Positions 20,595 to 52,528 of a DNA stretch of 64,000 bases are shown in pieces; within the stretch, counting starts at the first letter, position 1; each line of letters begins with the position of its first letter. The stretch comes from Branchiostoma floridae (taxonomy: Eukaryota), in contig NC_136205.1 in NCBI RefSeq assembly GCF_015852565.1, positions 3,130,707 to 3,194,706 on the forward strand, in the 5' to 3' direction. The translations under genes were made by a program, and so were the position numbers. The notes under the pieces were generated by a model. The model saw nothing but the letters and a program-made list of their open reading frames with translations. It had not been told where the DNA came from and did not search any database.

Positions 20595-21937
20595 CTGCAA
20601 AATGAAAAAAAAGAAGATTTAGCCACTCTCTCATCGGCAAAACTGTTGATTGTCGTGCTATCATTGGTTAGTTTGAACTTAGTCTGTTAATAGTAAAAGA
20701 CAGTCTTGAAGAACCAAATTTGACACAAATGTTGTCAAACACGTCTGAGGAAAAATTAGATATAGAGACATGTCTATATCTGTCCATGAGCATTTGGGCG
20801 CATTTTGAATTTAGAGTTCCCACGAAATGGAATACCCATTTTGGTGATTTTCTTACAAGGGATAGACTGAAAACTTAACATCGCCGGTCCTCTTTAAAAC
20901 TTACAGGCTGTCGGGTAGAGCCAGTAACTACAACCACAAAATTATTTTCTTTTCAATTTTTGGCTTTAATAGAAAACTATGAGTTAAAAGATTAAACAAT
21001 AACATACTGAAATCCTGGTGAGTGTGCGGTTCTATGAGGAGATCGTCCTTCGGTGGCCAGCACGCTTCCCGCCATTCAGCTGACTCGTTATACACAGTGG
21101 TCCGGTTAAGAGCTGTGTGTGACAAACATTTAACATTGTAACAGCTGAACGTTTGTTAAAATAATAACACAACACATTTTCCTACGCAAAGCTCCCCATA
21201 ACCTATATAATATCCAGTGGGGATGTCCTGCAAACCGGGCTGAGGTTTCAACTTTTGTGGTGTGGCCTCTTATAACCAACTGTCAGCCAAACATAAAATT
21301 GGCTGCATGACTTCTCTGTAAGTAAAACCAATTATCTGATTGGCTGACGGATGGTAATAACGGTCACGGCCACAAAAGTGGAAACCTCAGCCCAGTTTAG
21401 TATGGCAATTCATGAAAGAAACATGCAATAACCAAAAGCTAGCTGTACTTGTTGAAGTTTGACAAGTTTTGACAAGTTTTATTGCAACATGTACGACATA
21501 GCAGCTGATAGCTGAATTGCGTCGACATTCACATAATACAAACAGCTGTAGTAAAAAGAAAGGGCACACTATTAAAAACTTTACATAATGTCCTACAAGC
21601 AATTCTTTACTAGAATATTGTAGGGTATTCGTCTTAAAATTTATAATAAGTATAAAATATCAAGTTGCCATACAAACGCTGTATCATTACTGAGTAATAA
21701 ACATATCAGAAGCGGTTTCTAATGAGTAATTACTTATTCAGTAAATATACCAGGTATGGTATCGGTGAGTTCTTATGTCTGTTCGGCAAAATGGAATGTC
21801 TAGTTTCTCAGAACTGCGAGTGGTACGTCCCATCGTTTGCTGTCTGGATGGGGGGAGCCAGTCCCGGAAGTTACAGACTCTTCAATGAAGTATTCACATA
21901 GAACGACCTTTGAAATGGGACATGACCTTCAACTGAC

Positions 21938-22261
21938 CTTGATATGTCATGACGAATCCACGCCCCGTCTTACTTGACGCAGACCGGAAAGAGATATGTA
22001 GCGTTTCGGCACAGGTGATCCCGACATCCGGTATGACGTCACCCGTGAAGGTGGTCCTGAACGCAGCGGCTGGATCCTCCATGGCGATGACGTCACCATC
22101 CGACAGTTGGAGCATGGTGAAGTCTAGATCGATCACGTGATATTCGGGCACCGTGATTGTCCACGTGCATGTCACGTGTTTGGTGTAGTTGCCAGGGAAA
22201 CCAGGAGAGTAGATGAAGCCGTCTGAGTCTGTCAAGTTCCCGCCACACGCCCCCATAGTAG
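21938..22261 (-). CDS. Exon encoding a CUB domain (CGGNLTDSDGFIYSPGFPGNYTKHVTCTWTITVPEYHVIDLDFTMLQLSDGDVIAMEDP...GFVMTYQ). It is phase 1/1.
   Basis: The CUB hallmarks are present (CGG.lt...G.i.SPgyP..Y.....C.W.I.vp.g..i.L.F..f.le....C..D.v.i.DG). The acceptor is ctccag|CT, with G+CT=Ala, and the donor is CAAG|GTCAGT. Confidence 0.85.
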
Positions 22262-22760
22262 CTGGAGTATGCAAATTATATGCAAATAATATGTAAATAA
22301 AACGTACGTATTTGTGTATTCCAGATCATACATACATTTTGCATAAAACAGATCGGAGGTACTACGTGGACTAAGTAATCCGCGACTAAGTAATCAACTT
22401 TATGGATGAAAGTTGCCCACATTGTAGCTGCAAATATAGCATGCAAATCATATGCAAATATCAGTATAGTATGCAAATCACGTGTATGTAAATGTCATAC
22501 AAAATTTTGCATAATACAAACGTCGATCTATTATGCTGGGTCCACAACTTGGCGGGTGTTTGCGGGAACGGAAATGATAATTGGAAGACCACAAAACTTG
22601 GAAAAAATAGCCATGGCATCTCTTGACATTTTGAACATTTTGTTCCCGCAAACAACCCTGTAGGGCTCGAGCTCGGTTAAAAAATGTGGCTACTTCCAGT
22701 ATAAATAAAGGTCATTGATTGATTGATTGATCTAGAACTATGTTTAAAAGCGCCCCCTAC

Positions 22761-23063
22761 CGTCGTATATGGTAAGTCTGTTGCTATTCTCTAGGTAGCC
22801 GCTCCCGCAGACTTGGTCCGGGTCGCCCGCACACTGGTCCTGGCACTCTCGGTCCTTCCGTCGGTTCCCCAGCCGAGTAAAATGCTCGTCCTGTCCGCAG
22901 AAGCACTCCGTTCCTCGCTGGGCCCCGGCGTACTTGTACCCAAGGCCTCGGCAATGTTCGGTACACATCTGAATGGTCATCGCGAATGTCCGGAGGTACT
23001 CGTGATAGAAGACTCGGTCGTCGGGGAGAAGGAAGTCTCGGTAGCAACCAAGATATCCGGGTA
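22761..23063 (-). CDS. Exon encoding a WSC domain (PGYLGCYRD...MTIQMCTEHCRGLGYKYAGAQRGTECFCGQ...CQDQCAGDPDQVCGSGYLENSNRLTIYD). It is a symmetric phase 1/1 exon.
   Basis: The WSC consensus is present (GCY.D...R.L......MT.E.C...C...GY.YAG.Q.G.EC.CG....C...C.GD..Q.CGg.....Y). The acceptor is tttttcag|TA and the donor is GACG|GTAGGG. The phase joins to the previous exon as G+TA=Val. Confidence 0.8.
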
Positions 23064-23464
23064 CTGAAAAAGAGCACAAGAATGTGTTGCTATTGCTCAT
23101 GAATGTAATGTTTATTACTGGCATATCGTGTCCTCCAGTAGATATCTATACGTTAATGTTAAATATATCTTCAAATCGATATATAATGCGGATTTCCTGC
23201 GTACTTGATTGCTGCTTCTCGCCGCTATATGTAACGGATGTAGGTGGCGCTTTTGTGGCTATCACAATCCCAAACGTGGCTAAGTTTGTATCCCCCTCGT
23301 CTCGGTTCATCACTGGAGTTACCTCCTAGATCCACCGGGTCAAAAAAGGAAACTCCAATATACCAACCTGATGAAATTATCTTTGCATCTTCAAAACTCT
23401 TGTTAAAATTTAGACAAATATAATTTTATTATCTCGTCATCATGCGTGTTATTTCTGAACTTAC

Positions 23465-39360: not shown

Positions 39361-42300
39361 GGGGAGATAGAGGGAGAGAAAGAGAGCTATATGCTTAGAT
39401 TCTTTCGGGGCTCTTTTATCTCTCTTTGTCTATCATTCGGGAGAGCTTATCGCGGTCTGAGAAGAGAGAGCAGTCGCGAGAGAGCAGAGAGAGAGAGAGA
39501 GAGAACTGGTTTATTTGATAAACACACAATGTCAGATACTAGATGGTAGTCCGAAGATGGTAGTTCGAAGATGGTAGTCCGAAGTATGACATGCTTGAAG
39601 TTTTCACAGAATTGAGGTCATCAACAAGGATATTATACACGGTATACCTCTCACAAGACTTGAAATTCGCAATAATGATACTGAAGGCATGGAAGGAACT
39701 TCTTGATGTTGTGAACCAGAGTAGTGTGAACAGCTTCAAGAACAGGCGTTACAGCGAAGCCCGTGCATGACGGAGGGATCGACAGTGGGCTATATGGGGG
39801 AATACAGCTAGCCTGGGTACCATCCCCTTTCTACCGGGGCTTCTAACACTTCCTCCGGTAGAAAATAGTTGGTACCAGGCTAGAATACAGCCTTTGTGGT
39901 TCAGGTAAATTAAGATAAAAAATCATTTAATCATTTTCCGTCCACTGGGACCAATCTGCACCCAGCCAAGCGAGAGCAAATTTGCATACATACCAAGACA
40001 CATGGAGAGAAAACAAGAACGACTAAAGAAGGACATTACAAACATATAAGTGACTTAAGTTTTTTCAAATATTTTTTTCGCATCTTATTAGATCATAACT
40101 TCAGAAGTACGTGCGTAGCTTTAGGCTTTAGATTATGTACATTTTCTGTGGGAATTGGTGACGGAAAATCGAGTCATGTGCATGTGTCTATACATGTGCA
40201 TTCCATACTAGAAAATAAGTCGTATATTTGCCTTTTAGAAGATCATAAAAAAGTACATTGGAAACACTATGCGTGTATTTGTCATCAAAAGTAACTTGTC
40301 CAAAACTATTTTATGTAACTGTAAAGATTGAGAGAACAAAATCTAAGATTTTTCTCTCCTCCCTATCAAATTACCACACAAGCACATTTGGGTATTGGCT
40401 TATGCGTACTATGTAATACAATTGGTGGCGGGAAATTGATGACGTCATATGTGGCCTACATTCCATAGATATCTACAACATTCATAGTATTGTTGAATAT
40501 TGTTACATATTAACAGTATAGGTTTGGCGTTTTGCGTGACAAGGGCTAAACAGGCACCAAACAGCTAGCTACATTTATGCAATTACCAAGAAGCGAGAGG
40601 AAGTCGAATATGTATGATTGTTTCCATTGTTACATACATATGATCCTTACCATGTGAACTGTACTTAGCTCAGTGGGGCAAAAATGAGCAATAAAGGTCT
40701 TCTTTCATTATGGAACCCGTTTTCTATCTTTTTTTTTTGTTCACCCGTTTTGTACGCCTTTTGTGCAACACCATTTTGTATCCACTACCCCATTTGTCAA
40801 ATACACCCTAAAAGGTCACGACAACTCCCGCCCGGTCACTTCATTTCTCTCAATGAACAGTCTTGGACCCTTTTGTTATCTTTCACAGTGACAAATGGTC
40901 AATTGGTCAGCACGAACACTGGTCATTTCGCCGCTTACTGACCCCTACATACGTTGGGCCATCACAAAACTCAGAAATGGCTGTCACAAATTCAGCATAG
41001 AAACCGGCTGATCCCAAAAAAAGGTTTGTCCATTCTGTCCATGCAGAGCTAATTGAAAACGAATATCACTGTTTAATTGTTTGCCCCAAATATTCTGAAC
41101 TCAGCGATCTACTGCAAAGTACGAGTACGAGTTAGATGTTTAGATCTATATAATTCAGAACATAACGTTATATCAACACAGACGGTTTTGGAATATCTTG
41201 GGTCCTCAAAATGGTCGTTTCGTGGTTCGTTAAATGCGACACCTAGCGGAAATTTTGGTAACGGCATGCTCTCTAAAGATATGACTTCTGTGTTTCCAGA
41301 TACTGGTAATAGACGTCAATTACAGAATTTGGCTATTATTGTTACCTTTGCCAGAATGGCTAAGGTTTTATTTTCGGTCCGGTCGTGTGTTTTCGCCCTG
41401 TTTGTGAACAGCATAACTCGAGAAGACTGCGACGGATGCAGCTGATATTTAATGGGTGGGTAGGGGTCTGAAAGACAAAAGAGGGAGTTCGATAAGCGGC
41501 TTGCTAAGGTACTGCAGCAAAACCTCCATGTTTGATATCTCGCGTTCTGGACATGCTGCGGTCGTGATTTTTGAGCGGTAGGGAGCCCTTAAAGCAGAGA
41601 GTGATTGCTGTGTGATGATGTCAAGCTAGTGATTTCAATCCAAACGACAATTCAGTCATTTTGTGCTGCAAAAATTTCAATGTCAATTAACCATTTCTCT
41701 ATCTCACAAACTAATGAGTACAATGTCTACTACACTCACATTTTTATATCAACTGTTAAAAAGACACCGTGTGAAAAACAGGAAAACTGGTTTGAATTTC
41801 ATCAAATATCTCGAAAATTCCATATCCCTTACCAGCGGTTCACCAAAAGAAAGTGTAAGGCCTGCAGCCTTTTTGATAGGGCCACGTGAGAGTAAAAAAC
41901 TCATCAAAAATTTCATTTTCCGCATAGATCTGATGACTAGAATAGCCTCAGGCGGGTCATTGACCCTCTATTATAGATGAAATGGGAAAATGATCGAGTT
42001 GTGCTTCTTCAACACGTGTATGCGAAACACGTGGATTAATGCTCGAGAATGTAAATTAGATAAAGCAGCCGAGGGTACATGTTCATGAGAAAGGGTGAGG
42101 CCAGAGCAAGAAAAATTCATGGATGGCATCCTCTCCAGACTGCACAAATAGTTAGATAGGGCGAAAAAGGCAAGATGGCTATCGTGGAATAGGTCAATCA
42201 GTCACGTATAAGTAAGTCGATAGAGTAATTCCTCAATCACTGACTCTTGAAAACACGTAACCTCTAAATTTTCGGTCCTATTCTCGCTGGATCTCGCGAG

Positions 42301-43900: not shown

Positions 43901-46900
43901 CCTTAACGCAATTTCAATCAATCCACTCTCTAAGCAGAAGTGTCAACCTCGATGAAAAAAAGGAAGAATTTGGCCACATAGGGACAAATAAGTTACCATG
44001 GGATAATCTTTTGCAATCAATCGAGTTTTCCAAGGACGTTATATGAGAGTTTTCACTACATGCGGCTGGCCAAATCCTCTAGTAACAAAACTTCCCTGAC
44101 AAATTTCACATCCCCTACTCAGGTGCCCGTCTGACTCCCTTTGGCCGGCTATACTCTTTGGTCAGTTTTGATACTATCTCTAAAGGTGGGGTCACACATG
44201 CGTATGTATTCAAGTCCGTTTGAGGTGCGTAAGACGCTCTTAGTCTCTACCAGGCTCCACAGGTCGCGGGAAAAATAGTACAAATATGACAAATATAGAT
44301 ACATAACATGCCAGATGAGTTGGCTGACCGAGAAGTATGGTTAGCGACCCAGCTAACTTCGCTGACATGTTACCTGTTTACTTTTGTCCAATTTCTATTA
44401 TTTTTACAACGACCTGTGGAGCCTGGTGGAGGCAAATACTCCCATGCGCGCCTCATACGGACTTACATATATACGCACGTGTGACCCCACCTTTAGGCAC
44501 CGTATGGATAGTACCTGCTTGGGGAATACTCGGCCGGTCTGTTTGTGGAAACGAAAAAAAAATAAGTTTATGCCAATAAATATGCGCCAAGGCATGCTGT
44601 TGAATTATTTTTGGTCCGTTTTGTGTTTTTGTAGTCCTTTATATTGTACTTTTCGGACCCCCAAACTGCCAGGCCCGGCCCCTTTGTGGACATGTGACGT
44701 CAGCCTGACCAAAGCATAGCATGTGAATATGTTACACGTGTGCTACACTGGGGGTTTAAGTAGGTCATATGTTCATGAGGAAGGATATTAAAACTATCGC
44801 TACCCGCCATTTCCTTTCCAGATAGTTTGATACTCGCTGCTGGCCTCGTACTTTCCACACGTCAACATCTGAAGCATCACTTCGGTCGTGCAGGTCTTTG
44901 TAATGTGGTAAGTTTAATCTAATCTTTGTGCTTTTTCAAATACGATTCGATCTCTACAAACGGATAAAAAAAAACACACCGAGATTTAATTCAGGAAGTT
45001 TCGAGTGACATCCATCACTCTTCTTCAGCGTCATTAGAATGAACTAGCAAAACAATGCAGAAAAAGAGTGGTAAATGTCGCTCAAAACGTCCGGAAGTAC
45101 ATTTCCGTTTTTTTATCCGGTTGTAGATGTTGAATTGTATTTGAATATTGTTTACCTGGATGTCATAAACGTATCTTTTTGCTTATTGCTCCCAATATTT
45201 TTTCTACATTTATACTAGCCTTTTCGCATACCCTTTAAGTATCACAAGAATACCATGTAGACATTGTTGAAATATAAACTCAAACTTTACCTTGTACTTG
45301 CCCTAACATGTATACGTACGCCGATGATACTGTAAATGCATTTAAGTTCGTCGGGATTTAATTTCGCGGTAGGGGAAAAGAGGACCTTTCGCGATGGCGA
45401 AGCACCAGGCACTGTAGTCTCTTACTGCCATGGAAAAATGTTCGCGGTGGTTTTAAATTTGCTGTGAAGCGGCCACCGCAAAAACCGCGAACATTAAACC
45501 ACCGCGAAAGTTTCTGCATTTACAGTATACCGAACCCCGTTTGGTACACAAAATGAGCTATTTCTTTACAAGCGTACATTCAGTCTTTTGTAGAGTTGAT
45601 GGGCGGGAACTCAAAGACAGAAATGACTATGATTAGAGTGTTGTGGATGACTATCATAACAAGTGCCGCGTGCTTCTACCATAGAAACATCTATAAGCGG
45701 CTCTTCTTTGTCAGACGCTAAACACCCATTGATATCAATTAGCTGTTCTTTTGAGTTCAACGAAGGCGGGCCTATGAGGTACTACTGGCTCGCGGCAGTC
45801 AGGTTTTTGAAAACATGACTTGAAAAGTTCTCAGAAAATACTTGTTAAAATGTTAAAGGTCAGTTTAATGATTGGTATCTAGCCAGAGGGGATATTTGTT
45901 TTTATTCCTTGATCTGATCTACAGTTAATATTGACTGAAGGTATTAAAAAGGATAAAAGAGAATATCTCACGTGTATCATGACATAGATATACAGATTAT
46001 GAACATGCAAATTCCAGGTTCAATAAACAAGCATACGTTAGAGACGTCACCACTGAGTTTGGTTGCCAGGGTATCTTTCCACAGGAATACTCCCATCTAG
46101 GGGTGGGTACCGGGACAGGAAATTCGGGTCCAGGTACGGTCCAGGTCTAGAGAATCAGGTCCAGGTACGGATCTGAATCTGGACCTAATTATTTGTGAAT
46201 GGGTGATACTCAAAACAATGGTCTATTTCGCTACAAAGGAATCTCGTTTTGGTGGAGTATCCTATCTTAAACAACGCTAACTTCCTCTGTTAAGTTGGAC
46301 TGTAGAAACTTGATAGAAATGAGTATCAACTCTCCTCTACGTTGCTTGCTATTTTCTTGGTCCAATAAGCCCCAAAACACGCCTACCACAGTATATCATC
46401 ATAGTATAGTGCCGGTATAATCTGTGCATTCTAAAATCGGTCCAAAATTAGGACTGATTTTTTTCTGGTCCGGTTTTCTACCGATACCAACCCCTAGTTC
46501 GGCCACAATGTCCCGCTCTCTTTATAACTCCATATCGAACAAACAGAACCCTCCGTCCTATTTCGAACACCCCCTTAAAACAACCCTGTGGGACAGAAAT
46601 TGCCAAATTATAAAAAAAGGCTATGTGTTCTTTGTTAAAGACTACACCCACATTGTATAGTTGTTTTGTGAGGAAGAGCCACTGCGTTGTATTGCTTTAT
46701 TGGTGGGCAGGATGCGCGTGTTAAGCAGGGTACCTATAAGAGATGGGACTTCGCACTTAAGGTCTCATTGATGAGTTTCTTCTTTCCATAGACTTATATG
46801 TTATAATTCGTGTTTTTCATGGGCGCGTTCATAATGACGCTACGTAAAATTTTAGCAGATTTTTCATTCTATGTTGAGCACATTTACCCTATATCGTGGG

Positions 46901-48205: not shown

Positions 48206-48233
48206 TTTCTTTCTTCATTTTTCTCCTTTGCAG
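48206..48233 (+). other. Polypyrimidine tract plus AG 3' splice site (ttctttcttcatttttctcctttgcag) upstream of the GPCR exon. This implies an intron in the 5'UTR, with the first exon lying further upstream or outside the window.
   Basis: A strong acceptor consensus lies about 105 nt upstream of the start codon. A short upstream ORF (ATGGTTGAGGCGGATTTCAGAATCTAG) is present in the 5' leader. Confidence 0.45.
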
Positions 48234-48339
48234 GTCCCTCTGTGGCATGGTTGAGGCGGATTTCAGAATCTAGCCCTTTTCAAGGTCAAAATGAAAACTT
48301 GATTTGGCAGTCGTACGAGCCACAGAACACAATCCCAAC

Positions 48340-49944
48340 ATGTGGCTAAACGATTCTTTTAACGTTTCTGCCACCGGCAACATTTCCGGGTCCGATGACG
48401 TCATATCCGGCGCCGAGGACATGTCCCAGACGGGCGAATACACGACAGGCCAAATGATCGCAATCGTCGTCATCGTTTCCATGGTAATGACTTTAATCAT
48501 CGTCGGCAACCTGGCCGTCATCTTCTTATACGTTTTCGGCAAACGGATCAAAAAGCCGAGGAACGCCTTCATCGTGTCCTTGGCGGTTAGTGACGTCATG
48601 GTCGGGGCGACCATCATGCCCTTTTCGCTGTCCAATGAGCTGCTCGGTTACTGGGCGTTCGGGAAGATCTTGTGCGACCTGTGGCTCGCCTTTGACGTGA
48701 TCGCGTGCACGGCGTCGATCTACAACCTGTGCGCGATCGCGCTGGATCGCTATTGGTCGGTGACGGACGCCACCTACGTGCAGTACAAGAGTCGGGACCG
48801 GATGAAGATGATGCTGTCTGCGGTCTGGATCAGCGCCCTCGCCGTGGGGATACCGCCCCTCGTCGGGTGGGTAGAAGAACAGGACTGGGAACACGAGGAA
48901 AAACCGTCCTGCGAGCTGAGAACACTGCCTGAGTATGTCTTCTTCTCCGTGGCGCTCTCCTTCTGGGTACCGCTACTCCTCATGACGGCGATCTACTTCG
49001 TCGTTCTCCGAGAGACCAAGAAGCGCTTCTCAGCCAGGCTTCAGCGTAGGAAGATCTCTGAAGAGGTCGCCAAAAGGTACGGACTAAGACGCTCCCGCCG
49101 CGGGGTCATACCAGGGGCCAAAGCCGCCAACAATGCCAGAAAGGCAACGCTCCCTGCACGGTCCACAAACTCAAGCAAAGAAAGCAACGCTAACAGGCAC
49201 AGGTGTAGCATAATGACGCCCAGCACACAAAGAGTTTCTCCAAAACTGAACCATATTGTACGAGTCACCTCTACCTACGTGCGAGATGTTTCATCTGTGA
49301 ACGAGTTTTCAGATTTCCACCTCGACATTTTGTACGAAGAAACGGAGTCAAAAACAAAAGCCCCAAATTCTATCTCCGACCATAACACAGATAACACATT
49401 CAATGTTGTGTCTCACGATTCGAAAGCCAACGGCCAAACAAACGCCCTTGCACCAGCAGTTAAAAAGAATATCTGCGATTGCAAAGGCGAGGTTGTCAGT
49501 CAGGTTTGCCCAGATGCAAATAGAAAGCCCGTTAGCAACAGTTTTGAGACAAAAAGCACTCCTAGGGATGATAGCGTAGAGGTCGGCAAAAGCGGCTATG
49601 TTGGATGCATACCGCTACCAGTACCTGGCACACTAAGAGTCCATGCTCCGAGTTTAAAGCAAGAGACCCGCTTGAACCTGGTGATTGGATTGGTGATTGG
49701 TGCGTTTGCTGCTTGTTGGCTGCCGTTCTTTACCGTGTACCCTCTCTCGGTAGTGACCAAATCCCTCGTTCCGGCCGCCCTGTTCAAATTCTGCTTCTGG
49801 TTAGGATACTGCAACAGTTTTCTGAACCCAATCATCTATACGGCCTGTAATCAAGACTTCCACGAAGCTTTTTCCGAAGTCCGCCGGAAAGTCTTTAAGA
49901 GAAACCGCGACGGGAAAGGTCTCGTGATTGGCCGAAACAAGTGA
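48340..49944 (+). CDS. Intronless class A (rhodopsin-like) biogenic-amine GPCR of 534 aa, alpha2-adrenergic / octopamine / 5-HT1-like, with a long third intracellular loop.
   Basis: There are seven hydrophobic segments. The TM3 Asp (LAFDVIACTASIYNLCAIALDRYWSVT) carries a DRY motif. TM5 has Ser residues (FFSVALSFWVPLL). TM6 reads FAACWLPFF (CWxP) and TM7 reads NSFLNPIIY (NPxxY). ICL3 is about 220 aa. N-glycosylation sequons (NDS, NVS, NIS) sit at the N-terminus. The first in-frame ATG after the stop at 48292 is at 48340 (the ORF track's start at 48304 is a TTG), and the TGA stop is at 49942-49944. Confidence 0.9.
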   Translation: MWLNDSFNVSATGNISGSDDVISGAEDMSQTGEYTTGQMIAIVVIVSMVMTLIIVGNLAVIFLYVFGKRIKKPRNAFIVSLAVSDVMVGATIMPFSLSNELLGYWAFGKILCDLWLAFDVIACTASIYNLCAIALDRYWSVTDATYVQYKSRDRMKMMLSAVWISALAVGIPPLVGWVEEQDWEHEEKPSCELRTLPEYVFFSVALSFWVPLLLMTAIYFVVLRETKKRFSARLQRRKISEEVAKRYGLRRSRRGVIPGAKAANNARKATLPARSTNSSKESNANRHRCSIMTPSTQRVSPKLNHIVRVTSTYVRDVSSVNEFSDFHLDILYEETESKTKAPNSISDHNTDNTFNVVSHDSKANGQTNALAPAVKKNICDCKGEVVSQVCPDANRKPVSNSFETKSTPRDDSVEVGKSGYVGCIPLPVPGTLRVHAPSLKQETRLNLVIGLVIGAFAACWLPFFTVYPLSVVTKSLVPAALFKFCFWLGYCNSFLNPIIYTACNQDFHEAFSEVRRKVFKRNRDGKGLVIGRNK

Positions 49945-50014
49945 TTTGATTAGAAGTCATTCACATCAAAGCGCACCGATCACCAATCAGCAGAGATGGC
50001 GGGCGGCATAGACT

Positions 50015-50095
50015 TCCTGACACTTTTGACCAATCGCTGACGTCACGCGCCCATAAGTGCCACGTGACGTGGGTGATTGGTCTACGAAATTGTGA
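50015..50095 (+). promoter_or_regulatory. Palindromic promoter-like module, CCAAT - CRE(TGACGTCA) - CACGTG E-box/CRE-like - inverted CCAAT, lying 70-150 bp downstream of the GPCR stop codon.
   Basis: The sequence gaccaatcgctgacgtcacgcgcccataagtgccacgtgacgtgggtgattggtc is followed by a possible donor, aag|gtaagg, at about 50153-50158. Confidence 0.35.
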
Positions 50096-50509
50096 GGAAG
50101 ACCGTAGCAGAACAGTCGAAAAATTGTTGCGCTCTCTTTTTGACTTAAATCTAAGGTAAGGCTTAGTGTATTACCAAATATAAACAAAGATGAACATTCA
50201 TAAAAATACAAATTGAATTTGTAAACATTTGACATTTGAAAAATGGAGACAAGAGATGTAATGCAGGAACACAAATGGAACACAAAAAAACAGAAATGAA
50301 ATAAATAAATGAACATATTTGGTTTCACCTTGAAGTTTTAGCGTATGGCTAAAATGCTTTAAGCGTAAAGCTACAAGTAAGTTTTAGAAAAAATCATATT
50401 GATCGTTGGTTTTCAAAAACAGATCTTTAAAAATGTGTCACTTCACTAAATTTAGAAAATAATTTTGACACTGCCAGATAAAACGGACAGACAGGATGTA
50501 AAGATAGTT

Positions 50510-51645
50510 CTGTAGTCAGTTGTTTTGGGTTAAATGTAGTGCAGTGTTTTGGGTCTAAAGGTAGTGTAGTGTTTCAGTCTAAAGGCAGTGTGTTTGGTCT
50601 AAAGGCAGTTTTTTTGTCGAAACGGAGTGTTTCAGCTCTGAAGGTACCAGTGTAGTATTTGGGGCCTAAAGGTATTGTTTGGGGTTTAAAGGTAGTATTT
50701 GGCTCTAAAGGCAGTGTTAACGTTTTGGGTCTAAAGGCAGTGTGTTTGGTTTAAAGGGATCGTTTTAGCTCTAAAGGCAGAGCGTTTAAGCTCTAAGGAT
50801 AATGTAGTGATCTTTGTTGTAAAGGCAGAGTTTTGGGTCTATATAAAGTATTTTGGGCCTTAAGGCAGAGTTTTGGGTCTAAAGAGAGTGTTTAGTTCTA
50901 AGGGTAGTGTAGTATTTTTGGTCTAATGACAGAGTTTTGGCTCTAAAGGTAGTATAGTGTTTTGGCTCTAAAGGAAGTGTTTTGGCTCGAAAAGTAGTGT
51001 TTTTGGTTCTAAAGGCAGAGTTTTGGCCCTAAAGGTAGTGCAGTGTTATGGATATAAAACTGTATTTTGCCTCTAAAAGTAGGGTAGTGCTTTGGGTCTA
51101 AAGGAAGAGTAGTGTTTAGGGTCTAAAGATAGTGTAGTGTTTTGGGTATAAAGGTAACGTTTTGGGCCTAACGGAAGGGGAGTGCTTTGGCTTTAAAGGT
51201 AGCATTATGGTTTTAAAGTTAGTGTATTGTTTTGGGTCTAAAGGTAGTGTTTGTGGTCTATTGGTAGTGTTGTGTTGGGAGTCTAAAGGCAATGTAGTGT
51301 TTCGGCTAGAAAGGTAGTGTTTTGGGTCAAAATGTAGTGTAGTGTTCTGGTTCTAAAGGTAGTGTTTTGGGTCAAAATGTAGTGTATTGTTTTGGGTCTA
51401 AACGTAATGTTGTGTTGGAGGTCTAAAAGCGTTTTTTTAGGTTCCGAAGGTAGTGTTTTTTGTCTAAAGACAGTATAGCGTTTTGGGTCTAAAGGTAGTG
51501 TAGTGTTGTTGTTTTTTTCGTCTAAAGGTAGTGCAGTGCCTTTGGTCTAAGCGTAGTGTACTAGTGTTAGGGGTGTAAAGGTAATGTAGTGATTTTGGAT
51601 CTAATGGTAGTTTTTGGGGTCTAAAAGAGAGGAAGTGTTTAGGGC
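50510..51645. repeat. Minisatellite of about 1.1 kb with a degenerate 26-38 bp unit, consensus ggtctaaaggtagtgtagtgttttg, in roughly 35 copies.
   Basis: The motif repeats directly, with variants ctaaaggcagtg and ctaaaggtagtgt. Confidence 0.85.
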
Positions 51646-51981: not shown

Positions 51982-52049
<68 letters not shown>

Positions 52050-52056
52050 CGTGTGC
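51982..52056. repeat. Compound (TA)n(GT)n microsatellite.
   Basis: The sequence reads tatatatatatatatatgtgtgtgtgtgtg... Confidence 0.95.

Positions 52057-52325: not shown

Positions 52326-52528
<203 letters not shown>

Follow-up and report, generated by a model that had tools for sequence, protein, structure and literature searches.

Which family of amine receptors does the intronless coding region at positions 48340-49944 of a 64,000-nt stretch of the Branchiostoma floridae genome (contig NC_136205.1, forward-strand positions 3,130,707 to 3,194,706; hereafter the window) belong to, and which ligand would its product be expected to bind? An earlier reading of the letters alone, here called the original prediction, recognised a canonical aminergic G-protein-coupled receptor (GPCR) and held that it could not be assigned to the adrenergic, octopamine or serotonin classes. 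At the level of the family this was too pessimistic, because four lines of evidence, namely solved structures, database matches, phylogeny and the binding pocket, agree in placing the protein in the alpha2-adrenergic/Oct-alpha2R family; the caution stands only for the endogenous agonist. We put the probability at about 0.85 that 48340-49944 is an alpha2-adrenergic-family amine receptor gene and a fast-evolving paralogue, one of at least five alpha2-like genes that arose by an expansion specific to amphioxus.

Placement in the alpha2-adrenergic/Oct-alpha2R family

Ranked against the PDB, the window protein matched alpha2A first (236 bits, E=4.5e-69), followed by alpha2C (208 bits), alpha2B (204), alpha1A (183), 5-HT1B/1A (181), beta1 (166) and D2 (159), so that alpha2A leads the next families by over 50 bits. 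A Drosophila-type core of the type-1 tyramine receptor (TAR1), ranked in the same way as a control, matched 5-HT1A first (280 bits), with alpha2A lower (~241-247 bits). Among the top 120 database matches, the named entries from outside Branchiostoma were nearly all vertebrate alpha2A/alpha2D or invertebrate “alpha-2 adrenergic-like” receptors, and they included OA3 of Chilo, the first Oct-alpha2R.

Neighbour-joining (NJ) trees were built from Kimura distances over 273-275 columns of the transmembrane (TM) core, once with 36 sequences and 300 replicates and once with 47 sequences and 200 replicates. The sampling covered vertebrate alpha2A/B/C/D, alpha2-like sequences of hemichordates, echinoderms and protostomes, five insect TAR1 sequences from the database and segments of human alpha2A, and the human outgroups (5-HT1A, D2, beta2 and alpha1A) were checked residue by residue against PDB chains. 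The window gene fell inside the aminergic receptors, in a clade of alpha2 and Oct-alpha2R sequences with a bootstrap support of 90% (36 sequences) and 92.5% (47 sequences), and TAR1, 5-HT1A, D2, alpha1A and beta2 were all placed outside this clade. Within it, an amphioxus-only cluster (bootstrap 93% and 86%) comprised at least five lineages, which are the window gene, CAL36766 (“No18-like”), XP_002594054, a P0249-type lineage and a more loosely attached P0248-type lineage (53%). This cluster agrees with the published placement of AmphiAmR4, 5, 6, 9 and 11, which form a group off the principal branch towards the vertebrate alpha2-ARs (PMC3827198).

The original prediction had also pointed to the TM5 serines and the ligand contacts of TM6 and TM7 as informative, and these proved to be of the alpha2 type. 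In Ballesteros-Weinstein numbering, the pocket is identical to that of human alpha2A at 20 of the 23 positions compared (2.61, 2.64, 3.32, 3.33, 3.36, 3.37, 5.38, 5.39, 5.42, 5.46, 5.47, 6.48, 6.51, 6.52, 6.55, 7.35, 7.36, 7.39, 7.40 and 7.43), the differences being V for C at 5.43, W for Y at 3.28 and I for V at 2.57. The alpha2 signature, which consists of S5.42, S5.46, Y6.55, F7.35 and F7.39 together with S2.61/N2.64, is complete and is kept in all three Branchiostoma orthologues. Positions 3.28/3.29 are W/L in the window protein and likewise in the Priapulus, hemichordate and annelid alpha2-like sequences that were compared, relatives of which respond to norepinephrine (PMC5282848), whereas arthropod Oct-alpha2R has H with S/A. 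Membership of the 5-HT1 group was rejected, as human 5-HT1A lies outside the alpha2 clade and its pocket is unlike that of the window protein at 5.46, 6.55, 7.35 and 7.39 (A5.46, A6.55 and N7.39 in 5-HT1A). By these sequence comparisons, a receptor of the serotonin type and one of the tyramine type are both excluded.

Comparison with known receptors revealed both similarities and differences. Human alpha-2A adrenergic receptor (ADRA2A; PDB 7EJ0, 6KUX, 9PLN), which is the best solved-structure match and a member of the same clade, shares with the window gene a long third intracellular loop (ICL3), a short C-terminal tail (C-tail) and an intronless coding region, but identity in the TM core is only ~41% and the ICL3 sequences are unrelated. 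Unlike ADRA2A, the window protein has no cysteine in its C-tail for palmitoylation, and the window gene probably has an intron in its 5' untranslated region (5'UTR) and is one of at least five amphioxus paralogues rather than a one-to-one orthologue. The protostome Oct-alpha2R (CsOA3 of Chilo, DmOct-alpha2R and AmOct-alpha2R), whose agonist is octopamine, fall within the alpha2 clade and have S5.42/S5.46, Y6.55, F7.35 and F7.39 as in the window protein. The honeybee AmOct-alpha2R has a short C-tail, couples to Gi and lowers cyclic AMP (cAMP), and its coding region contains two introns, in contrast to the single exon observed here (PMC7762591). The alpha2 receptors of Saccoglossus, Platynereis and Priapulus, for which norepinephrine and epinephrine are agonists in the nM range (Bauknecht & Jekely 2017, PMC5282848), belong to the same family but are single conservative orthologues, whereas the window gene has diverged and belongs to an expansion specific to its lineage. 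AmphiAmR4 and AmphiAmR11 have both the species and the amphioxus cluster in common with the window gene, and they are coupled to Gi and activate ERK (PMC3827198).

The gene, its protein and its conservation

The window gene is already known, since its 534-aa product is identical to the RefSeq protein XP_078585576.1 (P0122; B. floridae x B. japonicum) and had been listed in 2007-2008; it is thus catalogued, annotated and not new. Both XP_078585576.1 and XP_035658921.1 carry the RefSeq label “alpha-2A adrenergic receptor-like”. The top database match, from Branchiostoma, shows 99% identity across 534 aa, and its 90%-identity cluster holds four entries: XP_002608759.1 (BRAFLDRAFT_73980), XP_035658921.1 (B. 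floridae), XP_078585576.1 and CAL36770.1 / A0PF34. The entry CAL36770.1, which is ~98% identical to the window protein, originates from the 2007 survey of the AmphiAmR series, the identification of which from unassembled genomic reads was described by Nordstrom et al. (PMC2246102). Model 73980 is listed under the amine receptors, with pufferfish alpha2 receptors as its best matches (Nordstrom et al. 2008, PMC2246102 supplement file 3). The window gene may be AmphiAmR4, which is characterised and alpha2-like, or else AmphiAmR5, 6 or 9. For AmphiAmR4 the reported pharmacology is of the alpha2 type with Gi coupling, and naphazoline is its strongest agonist; AmphiAmR1-11 correspond to EMBL entries AM396589-AM396599. 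AmphiAmR11 was ruled out as its identity, as the published forward primer gives an ORF start of MGVF and the reverse primer mismatches the 3' end of the window gene. AmphiAmR9 is weakly favoured: CAL36766 and CAL36770 are four accessions apart and both belong to the alpha2-like cluster, a spacing that would match AmphiAmR5 and AmphiAmR9 if the numbering was consecutive, which is a guess from a weak clue. A homology search started from a paralogue retrieved two further amphioxus paralogues, but no entry carrying an AmphiAmR name. The gene is therefore a correctly recognised, ordinary and annotated member of a known family, with the natural ligand of this divergent paralogue as the chief point of remaining interest.

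The open reading frame (ORF) runs uninterrupted from the ATG at 48340 to the TGA at 49942-49944 (534 codons plus the stop, no internal stops), and because a TGA stands in frame at 48292-48294, there is no upstream coding extension and the leader is non-coding. The product matches Pfam 7tm_1 (E=8e-59, residues 56-500). The four motifs listed in the original prediction are all present (Table 1), and the rhodopsin-family fold of seven TM helices, together with D3.32, DRY, CWxP and NPxxY, identifies a class A aminergic GPCR, in which the microswitches D2.50, DRY, E6.30, CWxP and NPxxY are all intact. An AlphaFold2 model, built from an alignment of 33 sequences, comprises seven helices and helix 8 with a predicted local distance difference test (pLDDT) score of ~90; TM5 ends at residue 246 and TM6 begins at residue 439. 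A Foldseek comparison of this model with the PDB gave TM-scores of 0.84-0.90 to aminergic receptor structures and no discrimination among subfamilies, as alpha1, alpha2, beta1 and 5-HT1A all fell within that range. The ICL3, previously put at about 220 residues rich in Ser, Thr and Arg, measures 210 residues (230-439) by Ballesteros-Weinstein boundaries and 192 (247-438) between the model helices, which is close enough, and its enrichment in these three residues is moderate (27.6%, against 16.4% outside the loop). The tail beyond helix 8 comprises only 11 residues.

Table 1. Features of the receptor gene in the window, with dN/dS ratios among three Branchiostoma species
Feature	Coordinates	Strand	dN/dS	Details
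Putative 3' acceptor site of a 5'UTR intron, polypyrimidine tract with CAG	48214..48233	+		16 of 18 pyrimidines; conservation
Conserved 106-nt leader, 5'UTR part of the coding exon	48234..48339	+		Identity 73% to B. lanceolatum, 67% to B. belcheri haplotype
Upstream ORF 1, MVEADFRI	48247..48273	+		ATG 48247, TAG 48271-48273; Kozak-like GGCATGG; frame of the main ORF
Upstream ORF 2, MKT	48291..48302	+		Second upstream ATG, missed in the original prediction
Single-exon coding sequence, 534 aa, alpha2-adrenergic-like GPCR	48340..49944	+		ORF, Pfam, PDB ranking, database matches
Extracellular N-terminus, residues 1-36	48340..48447	+		Three N-glycosylation sequons, N4 (NDS), N8 (NVS) and N14 (NIS); pLDDT <50 at residues 1-30
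TM1-TM5, helices 36-66, 72-102, 109-142, 152-170, 197-246	48445..49077	+	0.14-0.19	AlphaFold secondary structure and pocket table; holds D119 (3.32), DRY 136-138, S203 (5.42), S207 (5.46)
D3.32 = D119	48694-48696	+		
DRYWSV, residues 136-141	from 48745	+		
ICL3, residues 247-438, predicted disordered	49078..49653	+	0.45-0.59	pLDDT <50 at residues 259-435
TM6, TM7 and helix 8, residues 439-523	49654..49908	+	0.10-0.12	AlphaFold model and pocket table; holds E442 (6.30), CWLPFF, Y467 (6.55), F482 (7.35), F486 (7.39), Y490 (7.43), NPIIY
CWLPFF, residues 459-464	from 49714	+		
NPIIY, residues 496-500	from 49825	+		
Probable 3'UTR	49945..50305	+		To the first AATAAA (50300)

Two side observations concern the ends of the coding region. 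An imperfect 21-nt tandem duplication lies at 48381-48420 in the N-terminal part (DDVISGAED), where the B. lanceolatum peptide forms a clearer repeat, ADDVISLADDVISDAGD. At 49915-49960, B. lanceolatum and the B. belcheri haplotype have a C-tail shorter by 6-7 codons than that of B. floridae (…GLVIGRNK); a 1-nt insertion in B. floridae abolishes the TGA used by B. lanceolatum, and the DNA past that stop (TGATTGGCCGAAACAA) is kept in all three species, coding or not.

The orthologues compared were those of B. lanceolatum (L001) and of a B. belcheri haplotype from a hybrid assembly (L002), and both coding sequences are single uninterrupted ORFs (1527 nt/508 aa and 1518 nt/505 aa, respectively), which bears out the single-exon coding region of the original prediction in three species. 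Ratios of dN/dS by the Nei-Gojobori method, at a dS of 0.4-0.9, reveal purifying selection on the TM segments (Table 1). The ICL3 appears relaxed but still coding, given its dN/dS of 0.45-0.59 and the fact that all of its insertions and deletions among the three species are in frame. Conserved islands within it are CSIMTPSTQ, NEFSDFHLDILYE and PSLKQETRL, and a conserved motif, RLQRRKxSEEV (residues 233-243), is positioned just upstream, at the cytoplasmic end of the TM5 helix. The paralogues P0008 and P0248, like a hemichordate alpha2-like gene, also have a single coding exon, as deuterostome alpha2-like genes normally do; one paralogue model extends over 7.2 kb. An intron in the loop would follow from two B. 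lanceolatum models, P0004 and P0005, in which ICL3 and TM6 are spliced out, and this was rejected: the models lack TM6 while the full ORF is intact in that species, so that the splicing is best read as an annotation artefact. P0005 (CAH1233483.1, on a 43.9-Mb record) differs from P0002/P0004 by ~10% in the TM region and is on another chromosome-sized record, which suggests a recent extra copy of the receptor in B. lanceolatum. In addition, three partial tandem copies of the 3' end of the gene (matching window 49831-50047) lie at 11609-12104 of L002, downstream of its stop.

With these data at hand, two other accounts of the gene can be weighed. The 2007 description of CAL36770.1 / A0PF34 as a “predicted insect-like octopamine/tyramine GPCR” implies an octopamine/tyramine receptor of the invertebrate TAR1 family, and it may draw on a TM-core identity of ~40% to insect TAR1, slightly under that to vertebrate alpha2 (40-43%), and on the abundance of octopamine in amphioxus (PMC3827198). 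TAR1 membership was nevertheless rejected and is in our view very improbable, because the five insect TAR1 and two tick TAR1-like sequences formed a separate clade outside the 90-92% alpha2 clade, because the pockets depart from each other at five positions, where TAR1 and the window protein have, respectively, N and S (2.61), Y and N (2.64), I and F (7.35), N and K (7.36) and T and F (7.39), and because 5-HT1A and not alpha2A ranked first in the PDB for the TAR1 core. A preference for octopamine or tyramine in a receptor of the alpha2 clade, as in insect Oct-alpha2R, may be compatible with this rejection. A processed pseudogene or retrocopy that has lost its function is hardly credible as an account of the intronless ORF: the single exon, the longest branch of the clade and the fast evolution of ICL3 and C-tail could be taken in its favour, but the ORF has stayed intact in three species at a dS of 0.4-0.9 with a dN/dS of 0.10-0.19 in the TM core, all signalling microswitches and the upstream splice acceptor are conserved, a single-exon coding sequence is usual among deuterostome alpha2-like genes, and tissue-specific expression has been reported for the AmphiAmR set (PMC2246102).

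Probable ligand and signalling

For a functional alpha2-type receptor, the residues of the pocket suggest how an agonist may be held, and the pocket looks noradrenaline-competent. The protonated amine of a catecholamine or phenolamine would pair with D119 (3.32), its ring hydroxyls would bond to S203 (5.42) and S207 (5.46), and the ring would be packed by an aromatic cage of the alpha2 type (W6.48, F6.51, F6.52, Y6.55, F7.35, F7.39 and Y7.43). The active receptor would be expected to couple to Gi/o, with a consequent fall in cAMP, as in human alpha2A-C, insect Oct-alpha2R, AmphiAmR4 and AmphiAmR11; complexes of vertebrate alpha2A/B with Gi/Go among the PDB matches provide a precedent for this coupling. 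The disordered ICL3, rich in Ser/Thr and basic residues, together with the short C-tail, is a likely platform for regulation by kinases and arrestin, as is typical of the family. In the mRNA, one or more non-coding exons from further upstream are most probably joined to the acceptor at 48233, and the protein is encoded wholly in one exon.

Several points weigh against this reading of the gene. The window lineage is the longest branch of the alpha2 clade in both trees, the trees are distance trees (NJ with Kimura correction) and neither maximum-likelihood nor Bayesian ones, and relationships within the alpha2 clade are poorly supported (32-53%). At 5.43 the window protein has V, in place of the Cys of alpha2A and the Ser of most catecholamine receptors. 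Ligand preference is labile in the amphioxus cluster, in which AmphiAmR11 behaves as a D2-like dopamine receptor, and amphioxus tissue is reported to be rich in octopamine and dopamine, with only traces of noradrenaline (PMC3827198). In addition, an exon upstream of the putative intron was not located in the 10 kb before the gene.

The noradrenaline-competent look of the pocket, the dopamine preference of AmphiAmR11, the abundance of octopamine and dopamine, and V5.43, taken together, are compatible with more than one agonist. On a tentative reading, which we find possible but rather doubtful, the paralogue has changed its natural agonist and is a chordate octopamine or dopamine receptor on an alpha2-adrenergic scaffold; V5.43, the longest branch, the amine abundances and the D2-like character of AmphiAmR11 are what point in this direction. 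If this were true, the amphioxus alpha2-like expansion would offer, at the chordate base, a naturally occurring series of intermediates in “ligand hopping”. Only AmphiAmR4 and AmphiAmR11 of this expansion have been characterised, reportedly by Bayliss & Evans 2013, in Invert Neurosci 13:71 and PLoS One 8:e80833. Deorphanising the remaining members, of which the window gene may be one, bears on how noradrenergic signalling in chordates emerged from ancestral systems that mixed noradrenaline, octopamine and tyramine.

The leader and the flanking sequence

The original prediction had proposed a strong splice acceptor at 48233 and an intron in the 5'UTR. The acceptor itself was upheld: the sequence TTTCTTCATTTTTCTCCTTTGCAG/GTCCCT, in which TTTCTTCATTTTTCTCCTTTGCAG ends at 48233 (AG at 48232-48233), is equalled or bettered at only 9 of the 3737 AGs on the plus strand of the window (top 0.25%), and its pyrimidine tract and TGCAG/GT do not vary among B. 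floridae, B. lanceolatum and the B. belcheri haplotype, where they lie 106, 105 and 108 nt before the ATG, respectively. In an alignment of the 400 nt before the ATG of the three species, similarity collapses upstream of the tract, and each of the three pairwise blastn comparisons gave a block next to the ATG that starts 127-158 nt upstream, at the tract (at 48212 for the window against B. lanceolatum). This acceptor is the best such site within 400 nt of the ATG in each orthologue, branch-point-like yUnAy motifs lie 20-35 nt upstream of it in all three species, and no comparable acceptor was found at that distance in the paralogues or the hemichordate gene. Since the acceptor is invariant and the boundary of homology falls exactly at the tract, a 5'UTR intron ending at 48233 is probable on the strength of conservation, and the acceptor offers a precise anchor (48233/48234) for mapping the promoter and the first exon.

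The intron itself was borne out only at this end, as no donor or upstream exon was found: blastn (word sizes 9 and 7) of the 10 kb upstream in the window, L001 and L002 gave no convincing collinear match. Collinear matches at window 45623-45758, 40753-40950 and 41213-41294 were rejected as exon candidates, being weak or repeated elsewhere and repeat-like. This result would suit a gene with no 5'UTR intron, transcribed from near or downstream of 48233, in which the tract and AG are a promoter-proximal or other regulatory element. To our knowledge, vertebrate alpha2 genes are entirely intronless, which would favour the same view. We nevertheless consider it unlikely, because the element has the exact anatomy of a metazoan acceptor ((Y)16-17/18, N, CAG/G), invariant at -105 to -108 in three species and with the yUnAy motifs in place, because it ranks so high among the AGs of the window, and because conservation begins precisely at the tract in three comparisons, as it would at an intron/exon boundary. 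A further role has to be weighed for the upstream ORFs (uORFs) of the leader, which could be a translational control element of the receptor mRNA. The leaders of GPCR mRNAs often carry regulatory uORFs, and the Kozak context of uORF1, which lies inside the conserved leader, is good (G at -3, G at +4). However, neither upstream ATG (uATG) nor the peptide is conserved: B. lanceolatum and the B. belcheri haplotype have ACG and AAA, respectively, in place of the uATG at 48247, both have ATC in place of that at 48291, the B. lanceolatum leader has no uATG, and the B. belcheri haplotype has two elsewhere (-106 and -76), which encode 3 and 1 codons. Two uATGs in a 106-nt leader also compare with a chance expectation of ~1.6. 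The B. floridae uORFs are thus lineage-specific and probably incidental, and a control function seems improbable; the 8-codon uORF of the original prediction is present as described, but it is not conserved, and a second one had been overlooked.

At 9890-9905 of L002, the conserved acceptor is followed by GTATGT (CAG/GTATGTTGCAG), a near-consensus donor, with a second acceptor-like CAG 11 nt later, an arrangement that might reflect alternative 3' site use or a micro-exon.

Downstream of the gene, 40-140 nt past the receptor stop, a block at 49983-50080 contains CCAAT at 49983 and 50030, ATTGG at 50076, a full cAMP response element (TGACGTCA) at 50038 and an E-box, CACGTG, at 50061. In B. lanceolatum and the B. 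belcheri haplotype this dense group of motifs typical of promoters is conserved in part (mean column identity 71%), and it may act within the 3'UTR or as promoter for an antisense or neighbouring transcript. A minisatellite of ~1 kb, with a unit of 20-25 nt (~GTTTTGGGTCTAAAGGTAGT), occupies 50541-51501 and accounts for the GC skew of +0.42 at 50-52 kb; beyond it lie (TG)29 at 51998-52055 and (AAT)67 at 52326-52526. Rfam and tRNA scans of the entire 64,000-nt window gave no matches. Elsewhere in the window, an uninterrupted ORF of 1196 aa on the minus strand (1622-5212) consists of TPR_10/TPR_12 repeats throughout its C-terminal two thirds (E=1e-134), and its N-terminal 530 aa have no Pfam match above the cut-off, with only faint matches to the DUF294 nucleotidyltransferase. 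Two ORF-sized exons, also on the minus strand, encode a CUB domain (21894-22274, 5e-16) and a WSC domain (22744-23124, 4e-18), and are presumably parts of one multi-exon gene on that strand.

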